The position numbers and the translations under genes are program-made. The notes under the pieces are model-generated. The model ran no database searches and was not told the DNA's origin. It worked only from the letters and a program-made list of their open reading frames with translations. DNA of 56,172 nt, the filler included, from Catajapyx aquilonaris (lineage: Eukaryota): the NCBI GenBank assembly GCA_000934665.2. It is 2 parts of 2 records of this genome, joined end to end, with 100 filler letters (N's around TTAATTAATTAA, not from the genome) between each part and the next. Parts side by side here need not be neighbours in the genome. Positions count along the whole stretch, not along the records: positions 1 to 28,497 come from KZ539277.1; 1 more part is not named here. The stretch is one strand, 5' to 3'. Of the stretch, positions 5,205-24,114 are shown piece after piece (position 1 is the first letter of the stretch; each line of letters opens with the position of its first letter).

Positions 5205-8200
5205 GTTACACACAATGGCAGAAACTGTGCACCAGAGTGACCAATGGGATGAGGTTCTGAAGCAATATTACGACACTATGGAGACTGAAGGTACGATATT
5301 CTTAGGCTTTTTGAGTCGAATTCCTTTTTCTGATTCCTTAAGGATTCAAAGTAGGGTGACTCAAAGACTTTGTTCAAAGTTATGGAGCTGATAAGAGGGA
5401 ACAATAACAAACACCTGCGACCTAAAGATGGCCTCAAGTACTGAGATAGTGGGCTTAAAATCAAAGCTATAAAATACCCTGGCACACATGCACCCTTTTG
5501 TGAGGTATGGCCTTCATAATAGGTATATGTACAGTATTTTTAAAAGACGTGCCTGTGACAGAAAATATACAGTTTTGTGGTTAACATCACTGTTTCTTAG
5601 TTTCATATTGCTCCTATGACACCGGTACAGTTTTTTTTCCGTAAATGATCGGTCATCCGAACACCCCATTGGCAGACTCTGTTCGGATAATCGATGCTCC
5701 AATGTATATGTGTATGACTTTGCTATAAATGACAATCATAACTTTGCAAGTTAAATGCTATCACTGACAAGTAGGTGATGATGGATGGGTCAGTCACTTG
5801 TGAGGTTATTGGAATTACAATGGTATCTCTCTACTTCAACATGAGTAGGCCATAGTGAACTTCATAATCTTAATACACTCTACAGTACAATAACATTGGA
5901 GTTGAGATGTCACCAGTTTTTACAACAACTCGGAGCTCTTGACCCAGTCTGTCTTCATCTTTTTGTCTGTGATAGTACTTGCCACCCCAGTGCAACTCCG
6001 TTTTTTTCACATAGGTTTCCCCCTCCGACCTCCGTAAAGGTCGAGTGGCATATCGTAGTTAGGTAGGGTGCCGCTAGGCTTTAGTGCCAGCCCTTGACCC
6101 GTTCCTTCGGTTACTTTAGTCAAGTCGGCACAGCGAATCTGGTGGCGGAACGCGGTGGACCAAGACTCCCAAACCGCCCATTCAAAATCTAGTAGGCATG
6201 GTCCGTTCTGGTCCGTTCGTTCCCCCTCCGTTTCCCCCTCCGTTCTCAATTAATAGTAATAATTGTTGTTGCAGTGAGGGGTGTCACTCCATGCACTCAC
6301 GGTAAGAAGCCGTCGTGTGGGACTTGAGAGATCCGTGCGATAAGGGGGCTAGTTTCCAGACCTGCATATATATATATACAAAAACTCCTCAGCCTTGGTA
6401 CTTGCAGTGCCAAAGGATATTAGTACTTACCTTAAATGGACTCCTTAGTTTAGTCAGGAAGAATCTTGACCCCTGGAGATATGTGTGCACCTTGCTACCT
6501 GGCCATGCAATAGTGTAAATACTGTGTGCTGATAAGCTTAACACTTCTCACATTGATACACCTGTGACCTTTAAGTCTGAGACTGTTTTGTAATGAGTAA
6601 AAAAGGGAAGTGATTGACCTGCTTCATTGTATGTTCATCTGGGATTATTCTTATTTATAGTAAGCCATTAGCCAATCTACTACTAAGGATGTCCCCCCAT
6701 AGGAGCCCTGCTCCAGGCCGGGGTAATCAAATAAATAAATAAATAAATAAATAAATACTACTAAGGTCAAGTGGTATTTGCATGAAAATGAAGGTCACAA
6801 TTAATTTATGATATTAGTATTCTGACTTTAAAAAATATTTCTGTTGCTGTAAAGAAGAAACTGCCCACCCACTGAATTGTGTTTCCTGTGATGGAAAATA
6901 TTTAACTGCTTTTGCAGCATTGCACCTTTCCTCTTAACTCTTTCGCCCCCAGCCACCTAGAATCTAGGCGATGAGAACTCGACCACGCAGTACCAGCTAT
7001 ACCGCCATCGCCTGGTTTTACGCTTAGCCGTGCGCTGAAGATTCTAACAAGATATTATACAAATAATAACAGATATACTTACCCGTTCATGGAAAACACT
7101 ATGAATGTGTTGAAAACAATCTTCCTCCCATAGAAATCCCTAAATTAATTTCGATAAATATTTCTGTAAAACTCGAAATTAGAGTAGTACTGGACAACTG
7201 TTAGGCTGATTTAATTACGAAATACTTTAAAATATATGGAGTAACAATCTTGAGAAGTGTGCCAGATGAATTTGCTGAAATCGTCATACTTTTCGAGAAA
7301 TAAGTAAATTTGGGAGTTATTCGAAGTGACCGGCAAGTCGCAGAAAAGTATTAATTTATTTCTCAGAAAGTACAATGATTTCAACAAAGTCTTCTGGCAT
7401 GGTTCTCAAGATTGTTATTGCATATACAGGGTGTCCCTAAATGATTGTCAACATTTGAAAGTTGTATAATTTCTATTAGTTGCGGTGTGCAATGACAAGA
7501 CAGACATAGAACGAAAGAGGACATTTGGGAGTTTTTATTGCACACCGAAAAGTTGGTTCCGCACTTTGCCACGAGGCACACAGGGCCACTCCACAAAATG
7601 GTGTCTCCCGAACAGAAAACGTTCCATGTCCTGCAGTTTGCAAAGCTTGGTTCGCTAGTTACTGTTCAGCAGGCATTCCGGCGACAGTACGGACGACGTT
7701 ACGCCCCTCCATACAATAATTCAACGGTGGTTCCAGAAGTTTCAGACGACGGGATGCCTTTGCATTGGCAAGGATCGGCGGATCGGACATGCCGGTCAGC
7801 AAGATCTGGTTTTTCTCCAGTGGCCGCCAAGGTCTCCCGACCTCACCCCATGTGACTTTTTCCTCTGGGGGTATATGTAAAGGACCAGGTTTTCGTACCA
7901 CGGCTACCTACCAGCCTGTGTGAGTTGAAACGCAGGATTGTTGCTGCTGTGGAATCAATCACACCAGACATGCTGGCCTGTGTAGAGAATTAGACTATCG
8001 TGTCGTGTGACGAAAGGTGCTCATATTGAGCACTTGTAGTGCGTGCAATAAAAACTCCCTAATGTCCTCTTTCGTTCTATGTCTGTCTTGTCATTGCACA
8101 CCGCAACTAATAGAAATTAAACAACTTTCAAATGTTGACAATCATTTAGGGACACCCTGTATTTTAACGTATTTCATAATTAAATCAGCCTAAAAATTGG

Positions 8201-8560
8201 CCAGTAGTACTTGGATTTTCATCTTTTACACTGATCTTTTTGTAAATTAATTTACGGACTTATAGCCAAGGAAAATGGTTTCCAATACATACGTTGTGTT
8301 TTGCATGAACGGGTAAGTATAACTGTTACTATTTGTAAAATAGCTTCCCCTTACCTTCAGAGTACTTGTAAGTTGAACAGGAGGGAAAATCTAAGCAGAA
8401 ATGTAGTGGGTATACTGTGCGGTGATCTTTTTGGAAATTAATTTATGGACTTCTATGCAAGTAACATTGGTTCCAACACATGCATTGTGTAATAATGGAT
8501 ACTCCGTGATAGGCCTCCTAGGGCCTCATAGGGGATCATCTTTTCATGAGCCATCTTTAA

Positions 8561-8600
<40 letters not shown>

Positions 8601-10975
8601 NNNNNNNNNNNNNNNNNNNNNNNNNNNNNNNNNNNNNNNNNNNNNNNNNNNNNNNNNNNNNNNNNNNNNNNCTCCAAGGGTGGGTGGGAGGGGATGTGCA
8701 AAGTGCAAGTGCAATGTCTCTAATCGTCATTTTGTGAACTCCCCCGGGTGGCTTAGTCTGTCGGAAATTGCCACCCGAAACGAAGCCAGAGATGGCCCAA
8801 CTCTGCACGAAAGAAGGTGGGAACCCCGGGTGGGGATTGAACCCGGGACCTTAACTTCCGTGGGCGCGCGCGTTACCGCGGCGCCACTCCGTCTCCCCAA
8901 CCATCTTTAATCATTGTCTGTGCTGTGATAGATTTTGATAGGTTTGGGAGGAAACGGGAGAACCCCAAGAAAACCCACGCAAACTCGATCCACATAAGTA
9001 TCCTCCGTCCGACCCGGGGATCGAACTCGGGACCTCAGAGGTGGAAGGCTGTGGCACTAACCACTCTGCCACCATGTCGCCCTCCTAACACATGCATTGT
9101 GTAGACCAGGGGTGGGCAAACTTTTTTCTCCGTGGGCCACACAGAGATTTAAAAAAAAATTGAAGGGCTGCATCTAACAAAAGAAATTTCAACTTATTAA
9201 AATGTTTACAATTATATATCCATCGTTTTAAATGAACTTCCATTAATTGCATAAATTATCATTAAATTCTCTGAAAACGGTAAAATTAGCTAAATATATC
9301 AATGAAAATGGCCTGTATAAATAAAAAAAACAATATTTTTGTGAATTTAAAAGGATTAAAAAGAAAGGCACAGGCATATAATTTTGCAATTTTAATTTTT
9401 CAACATTTTCAGGAATACCGAAATTTTTGCACGGGCCGTAGTTTGCCCACCCCTGGTGTAGACTGTAGAGCATGAATGTAAAAGTATAGCTGTTATTATT
9501 TGTAAAATAGCTTGTCCTTATTTTCAGGTGGAACGGAAGTAAAAAGAATCTAGTCAATGGCGGTATAGCTGGTACCTGGCGGTTAAGTTCTCATTGCCTA
9601 GATTCTAGTTGGCTGGGGCCAAAGGGATTAAGCAGAGATATTTTTAAAGGTTCAGAGTCAGGGTGATGTGAGTACACAGTGTCAGTCCAAATGCCACGTC
9701 AGTCTCCTGCCAGGGAACTTGCTGGCCCAAAAGAAGTTTTGTAAAACTCTCCTTCAGCAAAGGAGCGTGGTTTACATAAATTGAATATGAATCAGTCTTT
9801 ATTTAAGTTTGGTCATTTATCGTATGTTTATAGAAACGGTTTGCCATTGACCTTTTTTTGCCTCCTAATTAATACAGGCTCTTTTTCACTTTGCAGGCAA
9901 GTCTCCTCGATTGCTTGTATGTGGCGGGAAGGGCGTGGGCAAGTCCACCTGCCTTCGCTGGCTAACAAACTGCCTGGTGTCTTCAGGCCATCAGGTGCTG
10001 TTCATAGACTTGGATCCAGGCCAATCAGAATTTACTCCACCGGGATTCATCTCGGCACACGTGGTAACAGATCCAGTTGACTATCTTGCATCTGCATCTG
10101 ACCAAAAAGTAGCACTCAGGATGTATCACGTTGGCATTGATGTTGCTCGTGACCCAAAGCACTACATCCGGAGTGTCATCAACCTGACAGGGTGGGCCGG
10201 CTCAGAACTCCACCAGAAGCCATGGTTGATCAACACTATGGGATTTTCACGTGGGCTTGGAGTAGATCTCATGCTGGATATTATACGTGAAGTGATGCCG
10301 ACCACAGTGGTGCAAATTAATGGGATCAATGAGCGGGAGAATTTCCCGCGACAATTTACACCATCGTATGTCTCCAGAGTGACACGGGGTTGGCTTTCGC
10401 AACCGGGCAAAGACGCATCACACTTCTTTACACCTGTGGAAGCTGCCCCACTTCAACTTCGCAAGCATGTAAAACCACCTGTGGTTCGACGTGAAATGGC
10501 ACTCCTAAAGTATTTAAAAGGATGTGAGCAACCCTACTCAGTGAACCTAGCTACGCTGAGTGTGTATGTTCCTCCACCACAGCCATCCCCATCGCTAATC
10601 CTTTCTGCACTGAATGGAAGTGTAGTTGCTCTGTTCAGTCTCCCAAAATCAGGTCCTAGACTTATCCCAAGTGACACATCAATGCCTACCATCTTGCTTC
10701 AACAACCTCATTCTCCTAGCTTGGGTTTGGGCATGGTTGTAGGAATTGATCCTGATGGCCGGCAACTGTTTTTGCAGACACCACTCCCATTCGAGCAGCT
10801 GAAGACAGTGGATTGTATGTCAGTTTCTGTGCAAACTCCAATTCCACGCAGTTTGTGGATGCAGGGAGCAGAGCGAGGGGGTGGATCCAAAGTTTTTCCA
10901 TACCTGGCAGTTAGCAGTGAGGCAAAAATGCTGAGCAAGCCAACAAGGAAGAGGTATCCTTCCAAGGCTTTCTAA
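5205..10975 (+). CDS. NOL9: Polynucleotide 5'-hydroxyl-kinase NOL9/Grc3 (Clp1-family P-loop kinase); exons 5205-5290 and 9897-10975, further 5' exons unresolved
   Basis: Walker A GGKGVGKST, Walker B and downstream DLDPGQSEFTPPG, INTMGF and C-terminal GLGMVVGID..LFLQTP are typical of NOL9. The phase-1 GT-AG intron 5291-9896 joins ...METE-GKSPRLLVCG in frame. Confidence 0.92.
6689..6755 (+). mobile_element. Severely 5'-truncated non-LTR retroposon with (AAAT)n tail
   Basis: About 40 bp of unique sequence plus an AAAT repeat tail, between 11-bp direct repeats TACTACTAAGG (6678-6688, 6756-6766). Confidence 0.75.
7427..8159 (+). mobile_element. Internally deleted Tc1/mariner-superfamily transposon (rosa/DD41D-like) with ~115-bp TIRs
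   Basis: TIR CAGGGTGTCCCTAAATGATTGTCAAC... and TA TSD. Transposase relics: N-terminal MVSPEQKTFHVLQF..VQQAFRRQY and a frameshifted C-terminal WPPRSP/LTPCDFFLWG motif. Confidence 0.88.
8492..9086 (-). mobile_element. tRNA-derived SINE family 2 (V-SINE-like), interrupted by a family-1 SINE
   Basis: 17-bp TSD AACACATGCATTGTGTA (8475-8491, 9087-9103). B-box GAGTTCGATCCCC on the minus strand. Homologous to 22927-23187 and 26686-26961. Confidence 0.88.
8563..8898 (-). mobile_element. tRNA-derived SINE family 1, copy 2 (contains assembly gap 8601-8671)
   Basis: Reverse complement of the 3486 element, with a poly(T) tail at 8563-8600 and TSD CCATCTTTAATC (8551-8562, 8901-8912). Confidence 0.9.
9107..9455. 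mobile_element. hAT-superfamily MITE
   Basis: TIR CAGGGGTGGGCAAAC...GTTTGCCCACCCCTG and perfect 8-bp TSD GTGTAGAC (9099-9106, 9456-9463). Confidence 0.92.
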
Positions 10976-11539: not shown

Positions 11540-11968
11540 CAGGCCTGTAATTGACACATCTATTCTTCTGTATTATGAAAGAAAACTAACTAATGGAATA
11601 AGGTCAAATGTTGCTTGTCTGGCTCAATTATGCTACATGTAGGCAGAAAAGTAGCACTTGACCTTTGCACATTTCAATTATGTTTTTTTTTGTAGGATTA
11701 CAGTATTGCGCTTGGTTAGACAGCTGTGAAAATTTTTCTGTTAGAACCATGTGCTGCAATGGCATATTACCATATTTAAATGCATCCTGGCCTTTTTCAT
11801 GCTGATCTATGTTAATAGTACAGTACAATCTACATTGTAAGTGATGCCAGAAATCGTTACTAATTTTTAAACATTTCCCCTGCATTGGAGAGAATGCAGG
11901 TTACAAAGAATTTTGATGCTGATTACCATAATAACCAGGAATATATTTACTTGATTGAATGCACCAGA

Positions 11969-14900
11969 TCACTGCTTCCTGCATGTAACCATAAGACGAT
12001 ATGGGGGTGGATAAATGAGTATTCCATAAGAGCAGTTCTCGAGGGAAGGTTGTTCATCGCCTGGCAGTGCAAAGTTGAATCTGTGCAATAGCATTGATGT
12101 GAACAAAAACAACTCATTCCTAGCCAGAACTTCTCCGATGCATGACCTCTTGCCTGCAAGTAATATATCGAGAATCAAGGCCATGCCATTAGCAGTTAAT
12201 ATTTCATTATCAAATGCCACTATGGGATAACAAATGTCAGTTACCTGAGCCAAAGATAAGGTAGGCATCCTGGCGTGTTAGTTGGCCGTTCTCATCCAAG
12301 AATCTTTCCGGTTTGAATTCTTCTGGTTTGTCCCAGTAACGTGGGTCTTTAAGCACTGAATAGATATTTGCCATAACTATAGTTCCTTTGGGGATGTGAA
12401 ACCCTCTAAATTCTGTAATCAGCCATGAATTGTATAGTCAATTCCACTCTCAAGGCAGCTTCACAAACTCGGCGTTGCAAAAGCGGGGCGTGTGGGCCTT
12501 CCGCTCATCGCACACAGAAAGTCCACCCGGTTGGACGCCAGCGCAACGCCCGCGCTCGGTCATCGCACGCAGCATTTGTGATTAGCCCTTCGCAAATTTT
12601 CCGCACTCCGCACGCCCCGCTCGCGCAAATCCGAGTTTGTAAAACGGGAATTTCGCAACGGTTTCGCAACGCCGAGTTTGTGAAGCAGCCTTTGCACACT
12701 TGGAATCAAAATTAATGTCAACTGCTATTACCAATATCTGTAGTTGTTGCATGAAGATCTCCGGCTGGTGCGTATGCTGGATAACGCATGGCTTCCAATA
12801 TGAATGCTTCCAAATAGCACAAGCTGTCATAAAATATAATTTGATTAGTGACATCTTATATTCCAAACAATATGAAGACCTCGGGGGAAGAACGATCAAG
12901 GTCCACTTTTCGTCTTTTTTGACAGAAGATAGTTTCACTAGTGTAGAATATGATGGTTTGGTCGTGGTTGTGGAGTAATGATCATAGGTCACCATGGAAG
13001 GCCACGAAAGTGGGATTTACAATGGAGCCTCATGGGCCTTCGAAATTTGAAATTGGAATATCTGTTTCACTTGAGGTGGCCCTTGATCGTTCTTCCCCCG
13101 AGGTCTTCATATGAACTACTAGCTGCGATATCCGTTCTTCGTACGGGGAAAAAAAGGATTCAGATTTATACAGAGATCTTTCCAGGCATTATTAAATGCA
13201 ACTGCTCATTCCCTTGCATATGCAGGCAATGGAAGGGTGTAAAAATTCTGGTTTGTTCTTGAATGATGATAATGCTTGGAAACAATGGAGCGTTCTCCGA
13301 TGCTGTCAAGCACAGTGTTTGAGATATACTGCATTTACTGAAAAGTGGCACGAGACCTAGGTATTCGGTGATCGGATGCGGCAGGGGGAAGCTCCCTCCA
13401 AACCCAATAAATAATTAATTTTCGGCATTTAGACTTGAAAAAGTGCAGTTTTCGGACTTCTTACTCAATCACATGCAGGTTTAGCATCAGTGTGAAAATT
13501 TTTCAGTGCTCTCAGAGGTGTGGAAGTGTGTTAGGTAGCCTGGACATAATATGGACGAACCTTCTCATTTATATATAGAGAATAGAGATGCTTTTAAAGA
13601 ATGAACCTTTTTCTGTGACTTATGCTAGGAGGAGATGCTGGATCACTGCCAATCACATCATCAATTTCTTTCTGAATCCTCTTCTGTATGTCTGGATAAG
13701 TTGCCAAGAAGTAAAAAATCCACAGAAGGGCTGAGGCAGTTGCTTCAGTCCCAGCACCAAACAAGTCCATGACAGTTGCATTCAGGGATCGCACTGATAG
13801 AAGTACATATTAATATGCATATTGTATTTGCTTATCAATCTTGAGGAAAGTACGAGGGCTGTATTAAAATTATTTACAATTTATTTTTTTTCCACAAATA
13901 CAGTGCCCGTACAGGTTGGCAGAGAGTCACACATTATCGAGAGAATCCTCCTGGACCTGAATGAACAGGAGTCATCAGTATGGCAACCTTTCCAGCCCCT
14001 CCAGGAACCATTTTTTGAAGGTTCGGCGCACCCTCTCCCGGAAAACTGCTTACAGTCAACAATGTCCTCGACATTGCATCAGTGAAGGTGTTTTTTTTCA
14101 TGGATCTGAACAGGTGAAAGTCACTGGGGGCCAAGCCAGGTGAGTGCAGCAGGTGTGGAAGCACCCAAACCCAGGTCCATGAAAAAAAAAACCTTTGCCA
14201 ACACCATTTTGAAGACACTGTTGTTTACGTTGTTGTTTGTGCACAGTTGTCCGGTAGTGGGTGCATTGCACTTCCAAAAAGTGGTTCCTGGAGGGCCTGG
14301 AGAGGTCGACACACCTGTGTTGGTAGTGCATTCGGCTCCTGGAGGATTCTATCTAATAATGTTTGACTATCTGCCGACCTGTATGGGGACTGTATTTGTG
14401 GCAAAAAAATTAATTGTAAATCATTTTAGTATGGCCCTCGTATTTATAATATTATGTTATTTGAAACTAGTTTTTTTTTCTATGAATCATACCTCCTTTT
14501 TCCCCATAAAAACTAGATTTTGGGTCTGTAGTCTTCTTAATCTCATCAATGTATACATCAGTGAAGTCACGTGGATTGCCTTCCTGCATTGTTTCCTGGT
14601 GTTCCCGAATAGTATCCAGGGCAAAGTTATTGACATTTCCCATGGCCTTCGTCATTCGATTCCATCCAGTCAGAGTTGGAAACATTTTGTATATATGGGC
14701 TGCATGGTAAACCATCCCTGTTAAAGGCTGAACTGCAAATGCACTGGCACGAGTAGACGACTTGTGAATTCATAATCCAATGCTAAAATATTTCAATTGC
14801 TTGAATGAGCACTAACCTCATCAGATCTGCTATCAACTTTTTCAAACGAGAGTCTTCTTGGTCGAATCTCTCTGATGTTACAATGCTCCAGAGTGAATTC

Positions 14901-15928
14901 ATGATTGGCAAATCAAAGAATCGAGTTCCGCACATGTCCACGATGCCCCCTGCCTGTTTGTCCAACATATCGCAAGCCACTTTTGCCTAATAATATTACA
15001 ATGATGGTGTGGAACAGGGTAATGCAAAACCAAGTGACAGTTCACAAATATGAAGTTGCAATTAGCAAAATGTACAGTACCTCTCGTGCAATATGTGATT
15101 CCATTGAGGTGCTGCCAAATCCAAGGCCCTTGAGTTGACGTGTTGAAAACTTCCTTTGCTCGCTCCAGTCATTTCCCGAGGTAAATACAAGCCCATGAAT
15201 TTGGTCTGTCCCTGCACCCGCCATGGCCTTGTAGATATCAAGTGGTGGACGATCATTGAATGCATCATCTTTCCATGCCTCTTTGATGTCCTTCAAGTTA
15301 TTTAACACTACCATCCTGTGGAAAATCATTGCAGTATTCACAAGTTGTACTGGGATTTATTAGTGATGATGAGCTAATAACCTGTGACAGCCGAGAGGAA
15401 CACTGAAAACCTCTCCATACTTCCATGCCAGCTGGCGTAGTGTTTCGTATGGATTCTTGCCTAAAAATGGGATGTAACCCACATGCGGCAAACCCCATGG
15501 ACCTGAAAGCAGGAATATTGTACTGTAGATGTATAAGTACGGTTTCTCAATGTAATGCAGCAAATACAGGGCACCTCAAAAATAACCTTACTGGTAAAAA
15601 TGTCTGACCAGGATAGTTAAATAAATAAATAAAATGAACTAATGAACGTATCAGTAGTATTATATTAAATCCAAGGTTACAAACACACAGATCTGACCAG
15701 CACTCCGTGAACTTCATTATGAGGAAAATGACAGGGGAGCAATATAATAGTCATCAGACATTCAGCATTTATGTTAGTAGCAAATGCTAATCCATAAATC
15801 TCTTGTAATTTTTCTGCCCTATTGTTGCACAAACCTGGCGGGAATCCTTTAGGAGCCCGGTTGACCAGCAGGGCGACGCTGACCAGGAGAATGACCAGAA
15901 GCAGCAGGCACTCTGACACCCCCACCAT
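11969..15928 (-). CDS. Microsomal cytochrome P450, CYP2 clan, 500 aa, 9 exons: 15928-15835, 15502-15382, 15315-15081, 14986-14817, 14743-14493, 13793-13607, 12823-12732, 12412-12245, 12153-11969
   Basis: N-terminal TM anchor with PPGPWGLP hinge, C-helix WSEQRKF, I-helix [11 protein letters not shown]-helix EAMR, PERF and heme motif FGSGKRSCIG. All eight introns are GT-AG with consistent phases; exons sum to 1503 nt. Confidence 0.96.
12453..12691. mobile_element. Harbinger-like MITE in P450 intron 7
   Basis: TIR AGGCAGCTTCACAAACTCGGCGTTGC / GCAACGCCGAGTTTGTGAAGCAGCCT and a CpG-rich interior. TSD unclear. Confidence 0.7.
12874..13108. mobile_element. MITE with 4-bp TSD (Sola-like), copy 1
   Basis: TIR GAAGACCTCGGGGGAAGAACGATCAAGG with ATAT on both sides. 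Copy 2 at 22428-23486 has an AAGT TSD. Confidence 0.8.
13853..14440. mobile_element. Mariner-derived non-autonomous element with long inverted arms (P450 intron 5)
   Basis: TA-CGAGGGC...GCCCTCG-TA termini. Minus-strand relic [17 protein letters not shown]; both arms resemble the transposase 3' end. Confidence 0.82.
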
Positions 15929-16179
15929 CCCGGCGCTTCTATCAGTTCGCTTCTATTGCGAAGTACATTTTCAGATCCCTCACGCATTAATTCAAGGCCT
16001 TCTCGCCGCATACGGACTTTGAACCATGTGCGTTATGTAATTATATCAATACCGTTTCGTGAACCGTATCCATCAGCTTCAAGTTTCGGCCGATAGTTGT
16101 CGCGATTTTTCAAACATGGCGGATCATTATTGGTTGGATAAATTTTGTAACATTATTGAGTTGTTTTAAGGCTTGATCC
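15929..16179. promoter_or_regulatory. Compact divergent promoter region between the P450 and RMC1
   Basis: Start codons are only 251 bp apart. The interval is CpG-rich and contains an AACATGGCGG motif. Confidence 0.6.
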
Positions 16180-19100
16180 ATGGCTGCAGGGGCACAGGAA
16201 GGGCGAGAAGGGGCCAAGGGAGAGGAAGAGGACGGCTACCTGCAGCTCTGCCCCTCCCCAGTCAGGTTCCAGCCATTCAGCCAGCTTGTGAATGTTTTCT
16301 TTGACCACGCCAACAAGCAGGTGCTGATGGGTTTATTAGTTACTAATTATATTTAGTTAATCAACATACCACTGAGACCTCTGTAAATTATGCATTTATT
16401 TTATGGTGTTTCAGATATTTGCGGTTCGCTCGGGTGGTGCGACTGGTGTTGTTGTGAAGGGTCCGCAGGATTGCAACAATGTGTCCTTTCGATTGGAGGA
16501 CAAAGGACCAGTCATGTCCATCAAGTTCTCCCCAGACCAGCAGATTCTGGCAGTGCAGCGGTGTAAAGTGTCGGTGGTGAGAATGAGCATTGGTCAAACT
16601 TGAAAATTGAGTTTGATGTACAGAAACCAGCCTTGGAAATGTGTAGGAAGCATGCAGCACAGCTAACGTGTTTATTTTGCAGGAATTCATAAATTTTTCC
16701 GGAGGGAACCCAGACACCAAAGAGTATTCGCAGTCATGTAAGGGAAAGAATACAGCAATCCTGGGATTCGTGTGGACGGCTGTGAATGAAATTGTGTACG
16801 TGACTGACCATGGACTGGAAATGTACCAAGTAAGTGAACCTTTCACTTCACCCTGTGTAAATACGACTGAAGCATTAGAGAGAGTAAATTTATTACCATA
16901 AGTTATACTGAATTTTTATTGCATTCTCTCTAAAGGTTGTACCTGAGAAGCGTGTGATGAAAGCCACCAAAACATATGCCGCCACTGTCAGATGGTTTGT
17001 ATTTTGCCCTGAAATCAATATCCTCATGCTGTCCATAGGCAGTGTGGGAAATGTGCTTCAGCCATGTCAGTTCAAACTCAACAACATTTACAAACTCAAC
17101 AAGTTTGAAGGTAAGGATTTAATTCACTCTTAGGTTACCGTGAAGCATTTGTGTATTCAAGTGTAAGATTGTAAATGACTTGGAGGAGATGACAAAACAT
17201 TCTGCAGCAAGTCATGAACTAGTTCTTGCTAAAATATGTTCTGTTTATGTAATCATATGTTTCCAAATTGCTTCCTTGTGTGAATATTTGCATTTCAGTT
17301 GACCTTCCGACAGTGCCACCAGAAACAAACAAAGCAAAAGTGGTGTTGCAAGAAAGAGATGTTACACTGGCAACTTTATATGGCCAAATGAGTGCACTAG
17401 TCCTTCGACATCAGTCAAAAGTGGTAGGCGGATCAGGAGCAGACATTATTGTGTACAACCTACAAAAGTAAGTTGGTCGATGGCTTTTTAAAATGCAGAA
17501 TTAAGGACAGAGCATTCATTTTCCTGCAGGGAAGGTAGTGATAGACGCAGCCACATACTGAAGCTGGACACCAGCGGTCGCTTTGCAGTGAATGTAGTAG
17601 ATAATCTGATCCTAGTGCATCACCAAGGGTCAAAAGTAAGTCATGTGTAGTGTCATACTAGATGAGTTTGAAGTTTTGCAAATTAGGCCAAACGCAATCA
17701 GGCTTCCATCTGGAATAATTAACCCCTTTGCTACCAGCTAGGCCGAAAACCCCTCGATTTTCCCTTACGCCTACTCTGAAGATACGGACAAGATATTTTT
17801 AAAATAATAACAGCTACATTTACCCATTCATGGAAAACACTATGTGTTTGAACAATTTTACTACTCTAGAAGTCCCTAAATTAATTTCCGAAAAGACCGC
17901 CTCAAAAACTCGAAATGAGAGTCCTACCGGCCAACTGTTAGGCTGATTTAATTGTGAAATATGCTAAAATATACAGAACAACAACCTTGAGAACCATGCC
18001 AGAGGAATTTGTTGAAATCGTGGTAGTTTGCGAGAAATAAATTAATACTTATTTGTGGCTTTTTGACACTTTGGAAAACTCCCAAATTGAATTGGAGTTT
18101 TCTGAAGTGCCAGTAAGCCGCAAGTAAGTTATTTATTTATTTCTCGCAAAGTACCAAGATTTCAGCAAATTGCTCTGGAACGGTTCTCAATGTTGTTGTT
18201 CTGTATATTTTAGCGAATTTCATAATTAAATCAGCCTAACAGTTGGCCGGTAGGACTCTCATTTCGAGTTTTTGAGGCGGTCTTTTCGGAAATTAATTTA
18301 GGGACTTCTTGAGAAGCAAAATTGCTCCCAACAGATAGTGTTTTCCATGAATGGGTAAATGTAGCTGTTATTATTTGTAAAATATCTTGTCTGTATCTTC
18401 AGAATAGGTATAAGGGAAAATCAAGGCGTTTTCGGCCTAGCTGGTAGCAAAGGGGTTAATGCTTTTGTTTACAAGTGACTACAGCCAACACTGCTGGTTT
18501 ACTCTGGCTCAGAGTTCCTAGTGACTTGTAAACAGATAATAAGTTTAGGTCTCAGAAAACTGTTATCCAGTTCTGTTTGGGTACTGACAGCTGAAAACAG
18601 TCATAGACTGAATGGATTCACTGGCCTGAAGGCCTCGATGGCTCCATGTGATTAATATGATTTTGATAGATACTTTGTTGTACTTGTAGACATCCATGGT
18701 GTTTGACATCAGCCTTCCTGGAGAGTCAGATGGCTACCTCACCTATCACCATCCCATCACAGTTGCTCTCTCCATAAAGCCTTTCAGGCTCAGGATTACA
18801 CCAGTTCCTATGCAAGGAGTTACTGACCCAGTGGAAGTTGACTGCGAGTTGTGTATCCTTTTAATTTCGATTGTACATGCATTTAGTTCTGAGGGTATCT
18901 GATATAGACAATTGTAAGCTCAATTTATTCTTAATATACACTGCAAAATTGAAGTATGGAAGTACAATAGAACCCTGATTATCTGTCACCCACGGAACTG
19001 GGTCTTTGTTGGATAACAAAAGAGGTCTGATAAGCTGAGGAGCAAAGGAAAACACGACAAGAAGCATACAAAATAATGAAATGATGTACAATATTATGCT

Positions 19101-22100
19101 TTTCTAAGAAATAGTGAAGTATTTATCTTTTACATACACACACACTGGTGTTTAAAATTTACCTAAGGCAATACAAAACAAATGATTAGTAGGCCTACAT
19201 TACAGTATTTGATAAGAAAACATACGAGGGGTGTTCCTCAAGTTCGCGCCTTTGGGTTGAAGGCAATGAGAGAAATGTTTCAAATTGCACCCATGTATTA
19301 GTCCTTCTCTCTATATGAAGCCTGCAAAGCCGCACATTTTTCCCAGCGATGCACGACTTGTGGGACACCATTATTGCCAAAATCAACACTTTGCGCTTGA
19401 AAAAAGTTTTCGATCTTGGTAAGGCTAAGGAATTGTTGGCGATGTTCCTCTCCGAAGATGGCGATTTTTTCAACCGGCTCATCATCAAGGACGAATGTTG
19501 GGTGTACCACTACGACCTAGAGACCAAATTACAGAACAAGCAATGGAAACACTAAAAACTCTCCACCGCCGCAGAAGGCCAGAATGCAGCCATCTGGAGA
19601 GGTTATGCCCAGTGTGTCTTTTGGGATTCCCGTAGATTTTATCACAACTCATTAGGCATGAAAAGGTCAGACCATCACAGGGCAGTATTATCAAGACCTC
19701 CTGTAAAAGCTGCATCACCAGATCAAGCGGAAGAGACGAGGAATGGTGACGCAAGGTGTGCACGACAATGCACCTGCTCATTCTGCCCATGCAACTGTGG
19801 CACTTGCTGGCCAGTTGGGGTACAGTGTTGGACATTAATCGAGGCATAGTGCTAGCAACATTTTCCGAAGCGGCAGAAGAAGGAATCTTGCTTGCCCGGC
19901 TTGCAGTATCCTTATCTTCGATTCCTTCTGCCGCTTGGGAAAATGTCGCTAGCAACATGCCTCGATTAATGTCCAACACTGTACAATATTCTGCCCCATC
20001 CGCCGTATTCCCCGGACCTTGCCCCTGGAACCTTCTTCCTCTTTTGCCACTTGAAGCAACCACTGTATTGGAAGCATTTTGAAAGTGACGAGGGGGTGAT
20101 CACAGAAGTTGAAAACAATTTTCATGCGCAAAGTGTCGACTTCTACAATGATCGTGTCCCTTCAAGTCGTGCATCGCTGGGCAAAATGGACTAATACGAG
20201 GGTCGTTTGGAAATGATCCGCACTCGATTTTTTTTGGCCACTACATGTACCTGCAGAGGCTGAATCACACTTGGGCTGCCTCAATGTATTCTCCACCGAG
20301 GTCGATGCACCGCTGCCACCTTCCTGGCAACTTCATGATCGTCTCACGGAACCAGTCTTTTGGTGCCCTCAAGCTGCATTGGCAAATCTTCATCCACGGA
20401 GGGGTTCCTTCATCTCGTCGAAAAGTCCATAGTCAGAAGGTGCCAGGTCCGGGGAATAGGGTGGGTGTGACAACACAGTGTAACCTAGCTCGAGCAGTGT
20501 TTGTGTCGTTGTGCGGCTTGTGTGAGGCCGCGCGTTGTCGTGCAGGAGCAACACCTTTCGTGCCCATTTCCCCTTGCGCCGTTTCTGAATCCTCCGACGC
20601 AGACGACGCAGCAGGATGCAGTAGGCAGCACTGTTCACTGTGGACCCCTGCTCCAGCCAGTCCAGCAGAAGAATTCCCTGTGCATCCCAGAACACTGTTC
20701 CCATCCGCTTTCCGGCTGACGGGGCTGCCTTGAACTTCTTCGGCCTCGGACTGCCAACGTGTTTCCATTGCATCGACTGGCGTTTTGTCTCCGGTGTGTG
20801 GTAGTGGAACCAAGATTCGTCCCCAGTGACGAGTCTTGCAAAAAACCCTGTGGGTTCTGCATCATGAATTTCCAGTAACTGTCAGCACCTCTGGACTCGC
20901 ACCTCTTTCTGCTGCGGGGTGAGATCACGCGGAACCCAATGCGCGCACACTTTTTTTAAAGCAAGATCCTCATGAATGATGACATGCAGGGTGGCCCGAC
21001 CTAGGCCAGTGTCAAGTTCCAGTTCATCGAATGTGATTCGACGATTTTCCATAATCAAGTCGTTAACCTTCCCCACCATGACAGCTGTCCGAGAAGTCGA
21101 CGGTCTGCCTGCACTAACCCCTTTTTCCACTGTGGCATGGCCTGCCTTGAATGCCTGGATCCAGTCGTAAACTGTTCTGCGGCCTGGAGCCAGCACTTCT
21201 CCACACACAGCCACAAGACGGTGGTGAATGTCCGCTGCTGTCACACCTTCTTTCCACAAGAACCAGGCTGTCCACCGTTGGCCGTGATGGTCGCCCTCCA
21301 TCTTGTCCACGCCAGTCTACACCCTCCCGCGTTTCAAGTGGCACTGTTGCTGACCTGATGCGGTGATTATGACAAACTTTTTACAGAGTGTAGGGTACAG
21401 TGGCCCCCACTGTTGAGATAAATGCCAACTTCGTGCAGCCACGTATGCTGCGACAATAAATCGAGTGCGGATCATTTCCGAACGACCCTCGTACATGTGT
21501 ACAATTGGAATCGTTTCTCTTATTTCCTTCAACCCAAAGGTGCGAACTTTATGAACTCCCCTCGTACATTTATTGCTGGAGTGGGACGGTTGGATAATCC
21601 GAGGTCAGAAAAATAGGGTTGTACGGTAGGTGAAGAAGTTGTGGATAGTTGACTCTCAATAACTACCTGAAAGCGAAGCAATAATAATCAGGCCCATATG
21701 CATTTCACAGGGTTGTAGCTTCTCTGAAACTGATTGTTGGGACTAACATTCTTTAAAATCTTCCCTTGCCACCTGTTGAATTGAGAACTGTGCTGCTTGA
21801 AATCGGTTTGATTGTGAAATAGGCTAATTGTAAACATTTTCATGATCATAACCTCTGTCCTTAACATATATTACAGACTCATCAAATTGGGTTGTATTCC
21901 AACCAAACATTGTCATTGACGCAAAGATGGGCTGCTTCTGGACTCTTGAATTACAGCTGGCTCCGTTCACCACCCTGATCCCTGACAAGTGTCGTCTGGT
22001 GGACTTTCTGTTGCAGAGGCGCTTGGGAAAGCCTGTTGTGTTGAGTGTCCTGAAATCGATGCTGGAACCCACTGGTGGACACAGCAACCAGCAGAGCATG

Positions 22101-24114
22101 GTCACAATTGCAAAAGTATTTGACAGGCTTAATGATGTCTACAGGAGCTTCTTGGAGGTGGAGATGCAAAGTCAGGTATGACTGATTTTTGGAGCCTTCT
22201 TTGAGAGAATTATTGACAATCAAAATGAGTACTACAGGGTTCTTTGTTGTGATGTGACAGTACTGTGAGTTACGAGTAAAAAAACACACATGTATGCATG
22301 CCATTGTCACTAGAACCAATCAAGAAGAGAAATATTTTTTGTAATTTTGTTGCGTCTCATCGTGAGTACCTCCCAGACTCCACTTCTACATTGGAGTAAA
22401 TCCCCAACTGTGTTGTTGATCTTAAGTGAATACCTCGGGGGAAGAATGATCGAGGCCATTTTTTGTCAAAAATGAGTTACATATCTCAGAAGATACAGGG
22501 TGATTCTCTTGAATGGAAGCCCAAACGTTCTTCAATAACTTTTTAACTATGGTATGGTTCCCAATGAAAATTGACATGTACTTACCGTGTATCATGCCAA
22601 ACAAGGTCTGACTAAAGAATATACCAAAAGTCGTCCCCTCCAGCATCCAAGAATTTTTTAATCCGAGTCTGCATATTGCCGAAGACCCCTGCAGGTTGAA
22701 GGCGGCGATCCCGTCCATTCCCACCCGCCCACCTGCTTAGCGAGAGAGCATATCAAGGCAACGGGCCCGTTGCCTTGAGATGCCAAGTAGGCGGACCGGC
22801 GGGGATGTGTGCAATCCCCGCCGGGAATCAGCAGGAGTCTTCGGCAATATCCAGACTCGCATTAAAAAATTGTTGGATGCTGGAGGGGACGACTTTTGGT
22901 ATACACTATTCGTTAGTCAGACCTTGATCGACACGGTGGCGGAGTGGTTAGCGCTGCAGCCTTCCACCTCTAAGGTCCCGAGTTCGATCCCCGGGTCGGA
23001 CAGAGGATACTTATGTGGATAGAGTTTCGATGGGTTCTCTCCGTGTTCGCGTGGGTTTCCTCAGGGTTCTCCCGTTTCCTCCCACTATCAAAATCCATCA
23101 CAGCGCAGGCAATGATTAAAGACGGTTAATAAAAAAGATGATCCCCTAAAAAGCCCAAGGAGGCTTATCACCCGGTATCCATTATTATAGTCAGACCTTG
23201 TTTGGCATGATACAAGGTAAGTATATGTCAATTTCATCGGGAACCATACCATAGTTAAAAAGTTATTGAGGAATGTTTGGGTTTCCATTCGAGAGAATCA
23301 CCCTGTAGTTTCACTAGTGTAGAATATGATGGTTTGGTCGTGGTTGTGGAGTAATGATAATAGGTCTCTATGGAAGGCCCCGAAAGTGGGATTTACAATG
23401 GAGCCTTATGGGCCTTCGAAATTTAAAATTGGATTATCTCAGTTTCACCTGAGGTGGACCTTGGTTGTTCTTCCCCCGAGGTCTTCAAGTATTTTCCACT
23501 GCAATGTAATACTTTTGAGCATGGTCTTTGATTGTAAAAAGTGGTGGATTACTCTGTTGCTGTAACTAAATAACTTCTACATGATTAATATTCCAGATGG
23601 CAATGCCAGCTTCAGTGACATCGGTGTCTCCAAAGCCAGCGTCTACCAAGGCGCATGTGATAATTGATCAGTCAGACATGTACACCAACATTTTCTCCCA
23701 GTTTGTCACCAGCAAGGAAGTTGGAAACACCTTCATTCTGGCTGTACTGATCGAGTACATCAGGTCACTCAACCAATTCCAGATACCAGTCCAGCACTAC
23801 TTCTATGAGCTTGTGATCAATGCATTGGTCAACCAAAAGGCTTTCTATCAGCTGCATCAGTTCCTCCAGTATCACGTTGTCGGTGATTCGAAGCCTCTGG
23901 TAACCCTGTTGCATTTTTGTTGTGTTAGAGCTAAATGAATGATTTTGTGTTCATTATGTGGCATTGCATTTTAGGCCTGCCTCCTGCTTTCTTTGGAGGG
24001 TATATATCCTGCTGCTCATCAATTGGCCCTGGATATGCTGAAGCGTCTCTCAACAGCTAATGAAGAAATAATAGAGGTCTTGCTTTCCAAACAGCAAATT
24101 TTACCTTCACTAAG
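16180..24114 (+). CDS. RMC1: Regulator of MON1-CCZ1 complex (C18orf8/Mic1/Bulli), 3'-partial; exons 16180-16320, 16415-16576, 16683-16829, 16936-17110, 17299-17467, 17530-17635, 18690-18852, 21877-22175, 23597-23899, 23975-24114
   Basis: The spliced translation has VFFDHANKQIFAVRSGGATGVVVKGP, SGRFAVNVVDNLILVHHQ, LYSSNWVVFQP, EYIRSLNQFQIPVQHY, LHQFLQYHVVGDSKPLACLLLSLE and QLALDMLKRL. These match RMC1 as recalled; 601 codons in frame. Confidence 0.96.
17723..18455. mobile_element. piggyBac-like fold-back MITE (733 bp, almost wholly palindromic)
   Basis: TTAA TSD (17719-17722, 18456-18459). TIR CCCCTTTGCTACCAGCTAGGCCGAAAAC extends into inverted arms of more than 300 bp. Confidence 0.9.
19823..19981. 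mobile_element. Tc1/mariner-type hairpin MITE, copy 2 (opposite orientation), inserted in the mariner A transposase
   Basis: TIR CAGTGTTGGACATTAATCGAGG; the TA TSD splits the Tyr codon of LGY-NILPHPP. Confidence 0.9.
20197..21491 (-). mobile_element. Full-length mariner (DD34D) element B, 1295 bp
   Basis: TIR of about 33 bp, CGAGGGTCGTTYGGAAATGATCCGCACTCGATTT, with TA TSD (20195-20196, 21492-21493). Confidence 0.95.
20265..21301 (-). pseudogene. Mariner transposase, frameshifted
   Basis: HTH region, WVPRDL, TGDESW, HDNARPH and YSPDLAPSD are all present but split over several frames (breaks near 20882 and 20390). Confidence 0.9.
22624..22899. mobile_element. Palindromic MITE (TA or TATA target)
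   Basis: Inverted arms of about 70 bp starting CCAAAAGTCGTCCCCTCCAGCATCCAA, flanked by TATA on both sides. Confidence 0.85.
22927..23187 (+). mobile_element. tRNA-derived SINE family 2 (V-SINE-like), full length
   Basis: A-box GTGGCGGAGTGG, B-box GAGTTCGATCCC, central GTGGGTTTCCTCAGGGTTCTCCCGTTTCCTCCCAC and an ATT tail. 13-bp TSD TAGTCAGACCTTG. Confidence 0.92.

Follow-up and report, generated by a model that had tools for sequence, protein, structure and literature searches.

Does the RMC1 gene of Catajapyx aquilonaris contain an intron that is removed by the minor spliceosome and, if so, is it the same intron that is found in mammals? The window analysed here (the whole stretch of DNA, 56,172 nt with filler included) had been examined previously by a sequence-only reading, which placed a U12-type intron of this gene at 18853..21876 and regarded its position as ancient. 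The results described below favour, at a probability of about 0.93, a constitutive U12-type RMC1 intron that was inherited from the common ancestor of insects and mammals.

The RMC1 Gene

RMC1 takes part in maturing the recycling compartments of the cell. Also known as C18orf8 and, in Drosophila, as Bulli, it is described as the third subunit of the Mon1-Ccz1 activator of Rab7 (PDB 9l0d, 8c7g, 8jbe; PMC10235969, PMC10193976). The gene is present once in the genome, and coding exons 1 to 10 span 16180..24114 on the plus strand, giving 601 codons that are free of stops. The coding exon that follows exon 10 is on another contig (C5831) and is without a match in the window. Only the joins between exons 6/7, 7/8 and 8/9 were observed in a transcript contig, the rest being modelled. 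The exons are as follows.

16180-16320, 16415-16576, 16683-16829, 16936-17110 and 17299-17467 (+): exons 1 to 5; model from homologues and tblastn
17530-17635 (+): exon 6; model from homologues and tblastn
18690..18852 (+): exon 7, 163 nt; spliced contig with 0 differences, and tblastn
21877..22175 (+): exon 8, 299 nt; spliced contig with 0 differences, and homologues
23597-23899 and 23975-24114 (+): exons 9 and 10; model from homologues and tblastn

A search with exon 8 retrieved RMC1/C18orf8 proteins, the best of which (61–67% identity) were entries from cockroach, cricket, stick-insect and mayfly, which marks the animal as insect-like; exon 9 matches the Pfam domain RMC1_C above cut-off. 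Homology across the length of the protein, together with this domain, places it in the RMC1/Bulli family. The RMC1 protein of a close relative (P0003) aligns along its length with both solved RMC1/Bulli chains, and no unusual feature was found in the protein encoded here.

A Transcript Contig Spans Intron 7

The junction proposed by the sequence-only reading, 18852 to 21877, was confirmed by a 2,116-nt contig from one public run, which joins these two bases exactly and covers exons 7 and 8 with 0 differences; the intron coordinates were exact. The contig omits precisely 3,024 bases with GT..AG ends, the cut is unambiguous, and the sequence extends into exons 6 and 9. Since the exact intron is skipped and exon 6 and exon 9 sequence continues, the contig represents a spliced product. 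This support comes from one contig of one run, of unrecorded library type, that may share the organism or sample with the genome assembly, and assembled contigs conceal rare splice forms. Among the uncovered parts of the contig-matched stretch, the interior of the intron is the only one that is bridged by a contig.

Intron 7 interrupts the codon of Tyr355 (numbering of the model) between its first and second bases, and the join reads CELY/SSNW. When the 29 donor/acceptor pairs near both ends that keep the frame and bring in no stop were scored against 23 homologues, this junction came first; the other 28, one of them an AT-AC version displaced by 2 nt, had lower scores, and the contig fixes the cut. 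Retention of the intron would lead to a stop 16 codons further on. The join gives LYSSNW, for which the sequence-only reading had named a conserved LYSSxW; as most invertebrate homologues carry LYSPNW and human carries LYSSSW, the conserved form is LYSxxW.

U12-Type Signals at Both Ends of the Intron

The intron and its splice signals are listed below; donor, branch box and AG are all where they had been predicted, the measured distance from branch box to AG being 9 nt (estimated earlier as about 10).

18853..21876 (+): RMC1 intron 7, U12-type, GT-AG, 3,024 nt, phase 1; from motifs, spliced contig and homologues
18853..18862 (+): U12 5′ splice site, GTATCCTTTT; 8/8 match to RTATCCTT at +1..+8; predicted pairing with the 5′ end of the animal's own U11 and with the AAGGAGA box of U6atac
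21858..21865 (+): U12 branch box, TCCTTAAC; 8/8 match to the consensus TCCTTRAC; sole CCTTRAC on the plus strand of the intron; predicted pairing with U12 leaving one bulged A
21866..21876 (+): AT-rich spacer, short, followed by the 3′ splice site (ending CAG), without polypyrimidine tract; from sequence

The branch A is likely to be 21864, with 21863 as the alternative; the former is 12 nt from the intron end, where the final bases, TACAG, finish at 21876. At positions -11..-4 the pyrimidine fraction is 0.50, the lowest among the nine introns of the gene and below the 0.62–0.88 of the other eight, so that intron 7 is without a pyrimidine tract between branch box and AG, in line with the earlier description. 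The bases directly upstream of the branch box are pyrimidine-rich.

Taken singly, neither octamer exceeds chance in the window (RTATCCTT, 5 matches against 3.6 expected; branch octamer, 1 against 4.0), and the evidence lies in their joint occurrence, the one at the donor end and the other at the acceptor end of a single intron. On both strands of the window, just 3 of 6,204 GT sites read GTATCCTT, and 1 of 6,288 AG sites has a branch box at the right distance; under a mononucleotide model, the chance of both U12 signals is about 1.5e-7 per intron. Intron 7 shows no mismatch to either octamer, while the other eight modelled introns, which look U2-type, have 2–5 mismatches to the donor and 2–4 to the branch box. 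An RTATCCTT at 10954 was not taken as a donor, as it falls within coding sequence, at the end of a NOL9-like frame. Further matches at 6413 and 37047, both on the minus strand, were not treated as donors.

The donor 12-mer of intron 7 (-3..+9) has 17 exact counterparts in the mouse/human table curated in PMC6717393, with scores of 93.7–95.6 out of 100; the rule for minor introns given there combines a donor score above 50 with a margin over the major-type score, and it is the minor-donor score alone that is applied here. Likeness extends to the GT-AG U12 introns of non-dipteran insects, as described in PMC3291851, which share the RTATCCTT donor, a TCCTTAAC branch box 12–15 nt from the intron end (the typical range for the insect branch A) and the missing pyrimidine tract. 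The same survey reports 71 minor introns in 70 insect genes, 56 of them GT-AG, with up to 63 in honeybee; dozens are retained by non-dipteran insects, while loss and conversion have taken place in Diptera.

An intron with U12-like motifs might still be removed, alone or partly, by the major (U2) spliceosome. Intron 7 does end in GT-AG, and at this position three fly-like relatives read C-K, as GTAAG would give, implying that the site can switch type. The donor, however, shares no more than GTA with the U2 consensus, a pyrimidine tract is missing, and the two U12 boxes fit their consensus at every base; moreover, the mammalian RMC1 intron depends on minor components according to the data of PMC11347168. 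Removal by the major machinery is accordingly judged to be extremely improbable.

Minor-Spliceosome Components and Predicted Pairing

Searches of the genome recovered all four minor-spliceosome RNA genes (U12, 98.2 bits; U11, 95.2 bits, in two identical copies; U6atac, 85 bits; U4atac, 66.1 bits). Each is full length, scores over the Rfam cut-off and has intact pairing boxes. A PDCD7 gene (E 1.2e-19), which we take to encode the U11 59K protein, is present, as is a PF18036 gene, presumably linked to the 25K protein. The genome search for CCDC84/CENATAC was uninformative, its controls being as blank as the search itself.

Intron 7 forms the strongest predicted duplexes with the animal's own U6atac (-7.3 kcal/mol; other introns -3.4 or weaker) and with its own U12 (-6.6 kcal/mol; others -5.4 or weaker). 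With U11, intron 9 slightly outscores intron 7 (-8.5 versus -7.9 kcal/mol), so this energy was not relied on by itself to tell the introns apart. Motifs, predicted pairing to the endogenous U11, U12 and U6atac, and the junction contig all support the U12 type that the sequence-only reading had assigned. It had also proposed a functional minor spliceosome: the four snRNA genes and PDCD7 are indeed there and, from these genes and the spliced junction, we infer that the minor spliceosome is functional in this animal and that it is the minor machinery that cuts intron 7.

In minor splicing, the U11/U12 particle binds donor and branch box together, the former through U11 and the latter through U12, and U4atac delivers U6atac, which displaces U11. 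At intron 7, the particle would engage the donor via U11 jointly with the branch box via U12, and U6atac, brought by U4atac, would take the place of U11 at the donor. The bulged branch A would then attack the G that opens the intron, with the AG 12 nt downstream serving as acceptor in spite of the missing pyrimidine tract. Removal of the intron would join T to AC, forming the Tyr of CELYSSNW.

The Intron Position in Related Proteins

The proteins of relatives were sorted by their state at the intron 7 site (56 proteins, six of them classed by eye). In 31 the L-Y pair is intact, while 15 read C-I-L (two of the searches used a C-I-L-containing query, and 13 of the 15 entries are closely related) and three read C-K. 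Of the remainder, three are joined deep into the next exon, two are otherwise broken and two stop short of the site. C-I-L is the translation of T/GTATCCT, that is, of a U12-like donor that has been read through, after which the residues diverge; it fixes the donor only partly, the donor being known here from proteins alone. In random sequence, I followed by L would arise by chance in less than 1% of cases.

The three C-K entries, which are fly-like, fit GTAAG, a U2-like donor, and share a GPGLAP motif with the Drosophila RMC1/Bulli chain. These two features suggest that, in flies, the intron at this very codon became U2-type, in agreement with the dipteran conversion described in PMC3291851. 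The position is common to stick-insect, cockroach and fly-like entries.

It had been anticipated that gene predictors would mis-model RMC1 at this intron, and public proteins of relatives are in fact broken at the site, though these models hold other errors. Among the 13 named polyneopteran entries, seven are broken at the junction (five from Timema, and one each from Blattella germanica and Gryllus bimaculatus) and six are intact; as the broken models carry other errors too, 7/13 is no measured excess at intron 7. The public proteins thus present three states at the one site, U12-like (stick-insect, cockroach), U2-like (fly-like) and broken models, which is of use for correcting RMC1 annotations and provides a small example of U12-to-U2 conversion.

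Comparison with the Mammalian RMC1 Intron

The sequence-only reading named vertebrate C18orf8 as a minor-intron gene, in agreement with the published human/mouse table (PMC6717393), where each mammalian RMC1 gene is listed with one minor intron. Both are GT-AG, the human intron being 254 nt in length (chr18:23524175-23524428; donor TCT/GTATCCTTT) and the mouse intron 185 nt (chr18:12184024-12184208; donor TCT/GTATCCTCA). Table S6 of PMC11347168 also classes both as minor, with a response to perturbation of the minor spliceosome in 3/9 human and 1/6 mouse data sets, and Table S8 of the same paper has an orthology column for the gene in which insects may already figure. A full-text literature search for RMC1 or C18orf8 as a 'minor intron' gene gave no match, and a search for RMC1/C18orf8 together with U12 gave matches that were on other topics by title and abstract; nothing was found in the supplements of PMC6800510 and PMC4066798 (each minus one file), PMC7367187, PMC7507305 and PMC2831892.

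Intron 7 and the mammalian introns share the gene, the GT-AG subtype, the donor core (GTATCCTTT in human), a compatible exon end and a U12 branch box. They differ in the match of that box, which is full consensus here as against TTTCCTATAACA in human (score 63.7) and TTTCCTTTAACA in mouse (score 80.7), and in length, which nested transposons have raised in intron 7 to 12–16 times the mammalian values.

In the human protein, Leu335-Tyr336 align with the intron 7 site, and the exon bases TCT fit a Leu335 codon ending in TC followed by the first T of Tyr336. Since TCT fits many codons of the human protein, we infer the shared position rather than observe it, and the human minor intron likely lies in the same codon as intron 7. 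Codon 336 of human RMC1 presumably contains a phase 1 exon boundary, at c.1006. A U12-type intron 7 that is nevertheless a different intron from the mammalian one, at a different codon, would be compatible with a TCT match that is not unique to Leu335-Tyr336. It would have to be squared with the single minor intron of each mammalian gene, both of them preceded by TCT and fitting Leu335-Tyr336, with the presumed human boundary, and with the occurrence of this position in stick-insect and cockroach entries as well as in fly-like ones, and we consider it very unlikely. The claim of an ancient position is well supported within insects, and its human part is probable on the grounds just given. Intron 7 is one more transcript-supported, insect-like example of an intron already catalogued in mammals, which in itself matters little.

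Nested Transposons and a Second U12-Like Donor Motif

Approximately 2,340 of the 3,024 bases of intron 7 belong to three nested elements inserted at TA sites, and the intron would be about 680 nt in length without them.

19225..21564 (+): outer element, mariner-like and decayed; bounded by TA on either side; terminal inverted repeats ~190 bp long, 71% identity
19823..19981 (+): multicopy MITE-like hairpin element, 159 bp, inserted into a TA of the outer element; GTATCCTTA at 19906
20197..21491 (-): inner mariner, within the right-hand repeat of the outer element; bounded by TA on either side; inverted repeats of 44 nt; Pfam Transposase_1, E 9.5e-20

The transposase remnants of the outer element were recognised from motifs judged by eye, and two fragments are without a Pfam match; the transposase of the inner mariner is broken by stops. 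The three insertions probably expanded the intron from ~0.7 kb to 3 kb, sparing both ends.

The GTATCCTTA at 19906 is a second U12-like donor motif, in sense orientation, and its use would lengthen exon 7 through a stop. Conceivably, it and the true donor contend for one branch site, so that an unproductive message lowers RMC1 output. The motif is upstream of the only branch box in the intron, is mostly unpaired in the hairpin loop of the minimum-energy fold (partly paired in the centroid fold), and is represented 43 times among the curated introns of PMC6717393. On the other hand, it is absent from the four joints listed for transcript contigs, which is weak evidence because contigs drop rare forms, and, given many repeat families, chance alone would be expected to put an octamer of this kind in one of them. 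Exon definition, which promotes donors near an upstream acceptor, favours the true donor, whose upstream acceptor is 163 nt away. That a hairpin transposon with a ready-made U12 donor competes inside a minor intron, sending part of the message to decay, is thus a long shot. If true, it would amount to a transposon rewiring minor splicing; it is the only surprising reading at this locus, and there is no sign of its use in these data. A narrow literature search for U12-type introns with cryptic splice sites from transposons or MITEs found none, and cannot show that the idea is unpublished.

A U12/U2 twintron or recursive splicing was rejected on a search for a second U12 branch box and for a ratchet site, as the intron holds one CCTTRAC only, and at 19906 an AG and a GT share one G and do not form an AG/GT ratchet.

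The hairpin element has a predicted fold of -110 kcal/mol (z -15). It is multicopy, from 40 candidates scored of an initial 1,487, and among the 30 best copies retrieved, 25 carry RTATCCTT, that of intron 7 included.

The intron 7 junction in related RMC1 proteins

The tyrosine codon split by intron 7 of RMC1 (18852/21877) is the point at which seven public insect RMC1 models are broken (P0008, P0015, P0025, P0045, P0046, P0050 and P0056). The breaks coincide exactly with the junction and differ in manner among these entries. Three fly-like RMC1/Bulli entries (P0039, P0041 and P0043) read C-K at this codon, which, from the protein sequences, suggests that the intron has been converted to a U2-type donor.

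Repeats within the RMC1 introns

Introns 6, 7 and 8 of RMC1 carry the following elements:
17718–18460, intron 6, near-palindromic element of about 740 bp with TTAA at each end
19225–21564, intron 7, TA-site elements nested three deep in one intron (a mariner inside a mariner-like element, plus the hairpin element)
19823–19981, intron 7, multicopy hairpin element, with TA within GTAC sites as its target
22427–23487, intron 8, several nested inverted-repeat elements

In most of the hairpin element copies fetched, the loop region contains a motif resembling a U12 donor. A 10-base word of this element (19909–19918) is also found in the 5′ end of the genome's own U4atac gene (L005), probably by chance. 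Sequence resembling the intron 6 near-palindrome is also present near 6940–7400 and 8160–8450, and part of the intron 8 region is matched by another contig, C5831.

Neighbouring genes and the 3′ end of RMC1

Two other genes were located in the window:
9869–10975, NOL9-like protein, a long single exon encoding a CLP1 P-loop and C-terminal domain
11900–15960, minus strand, cytochrome P450 gene (Pfam p450 match in all four of the fragments tested)

RMC1 and the cytochrome P450 gene are arranged head to head, with apparently about 250 bp between their starts. The RMC1 coding exon following exon 10 lies on contig C5831 (G000:C5831:4290-4484, L012) and has no match in the remainder of the window (24115 onward), so the 3′ end of the gene is split or misordered in the assembly. 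The U11 snRNA gene is present as two identical copies (L002 and L003), located on separate contigs with differing flanks.
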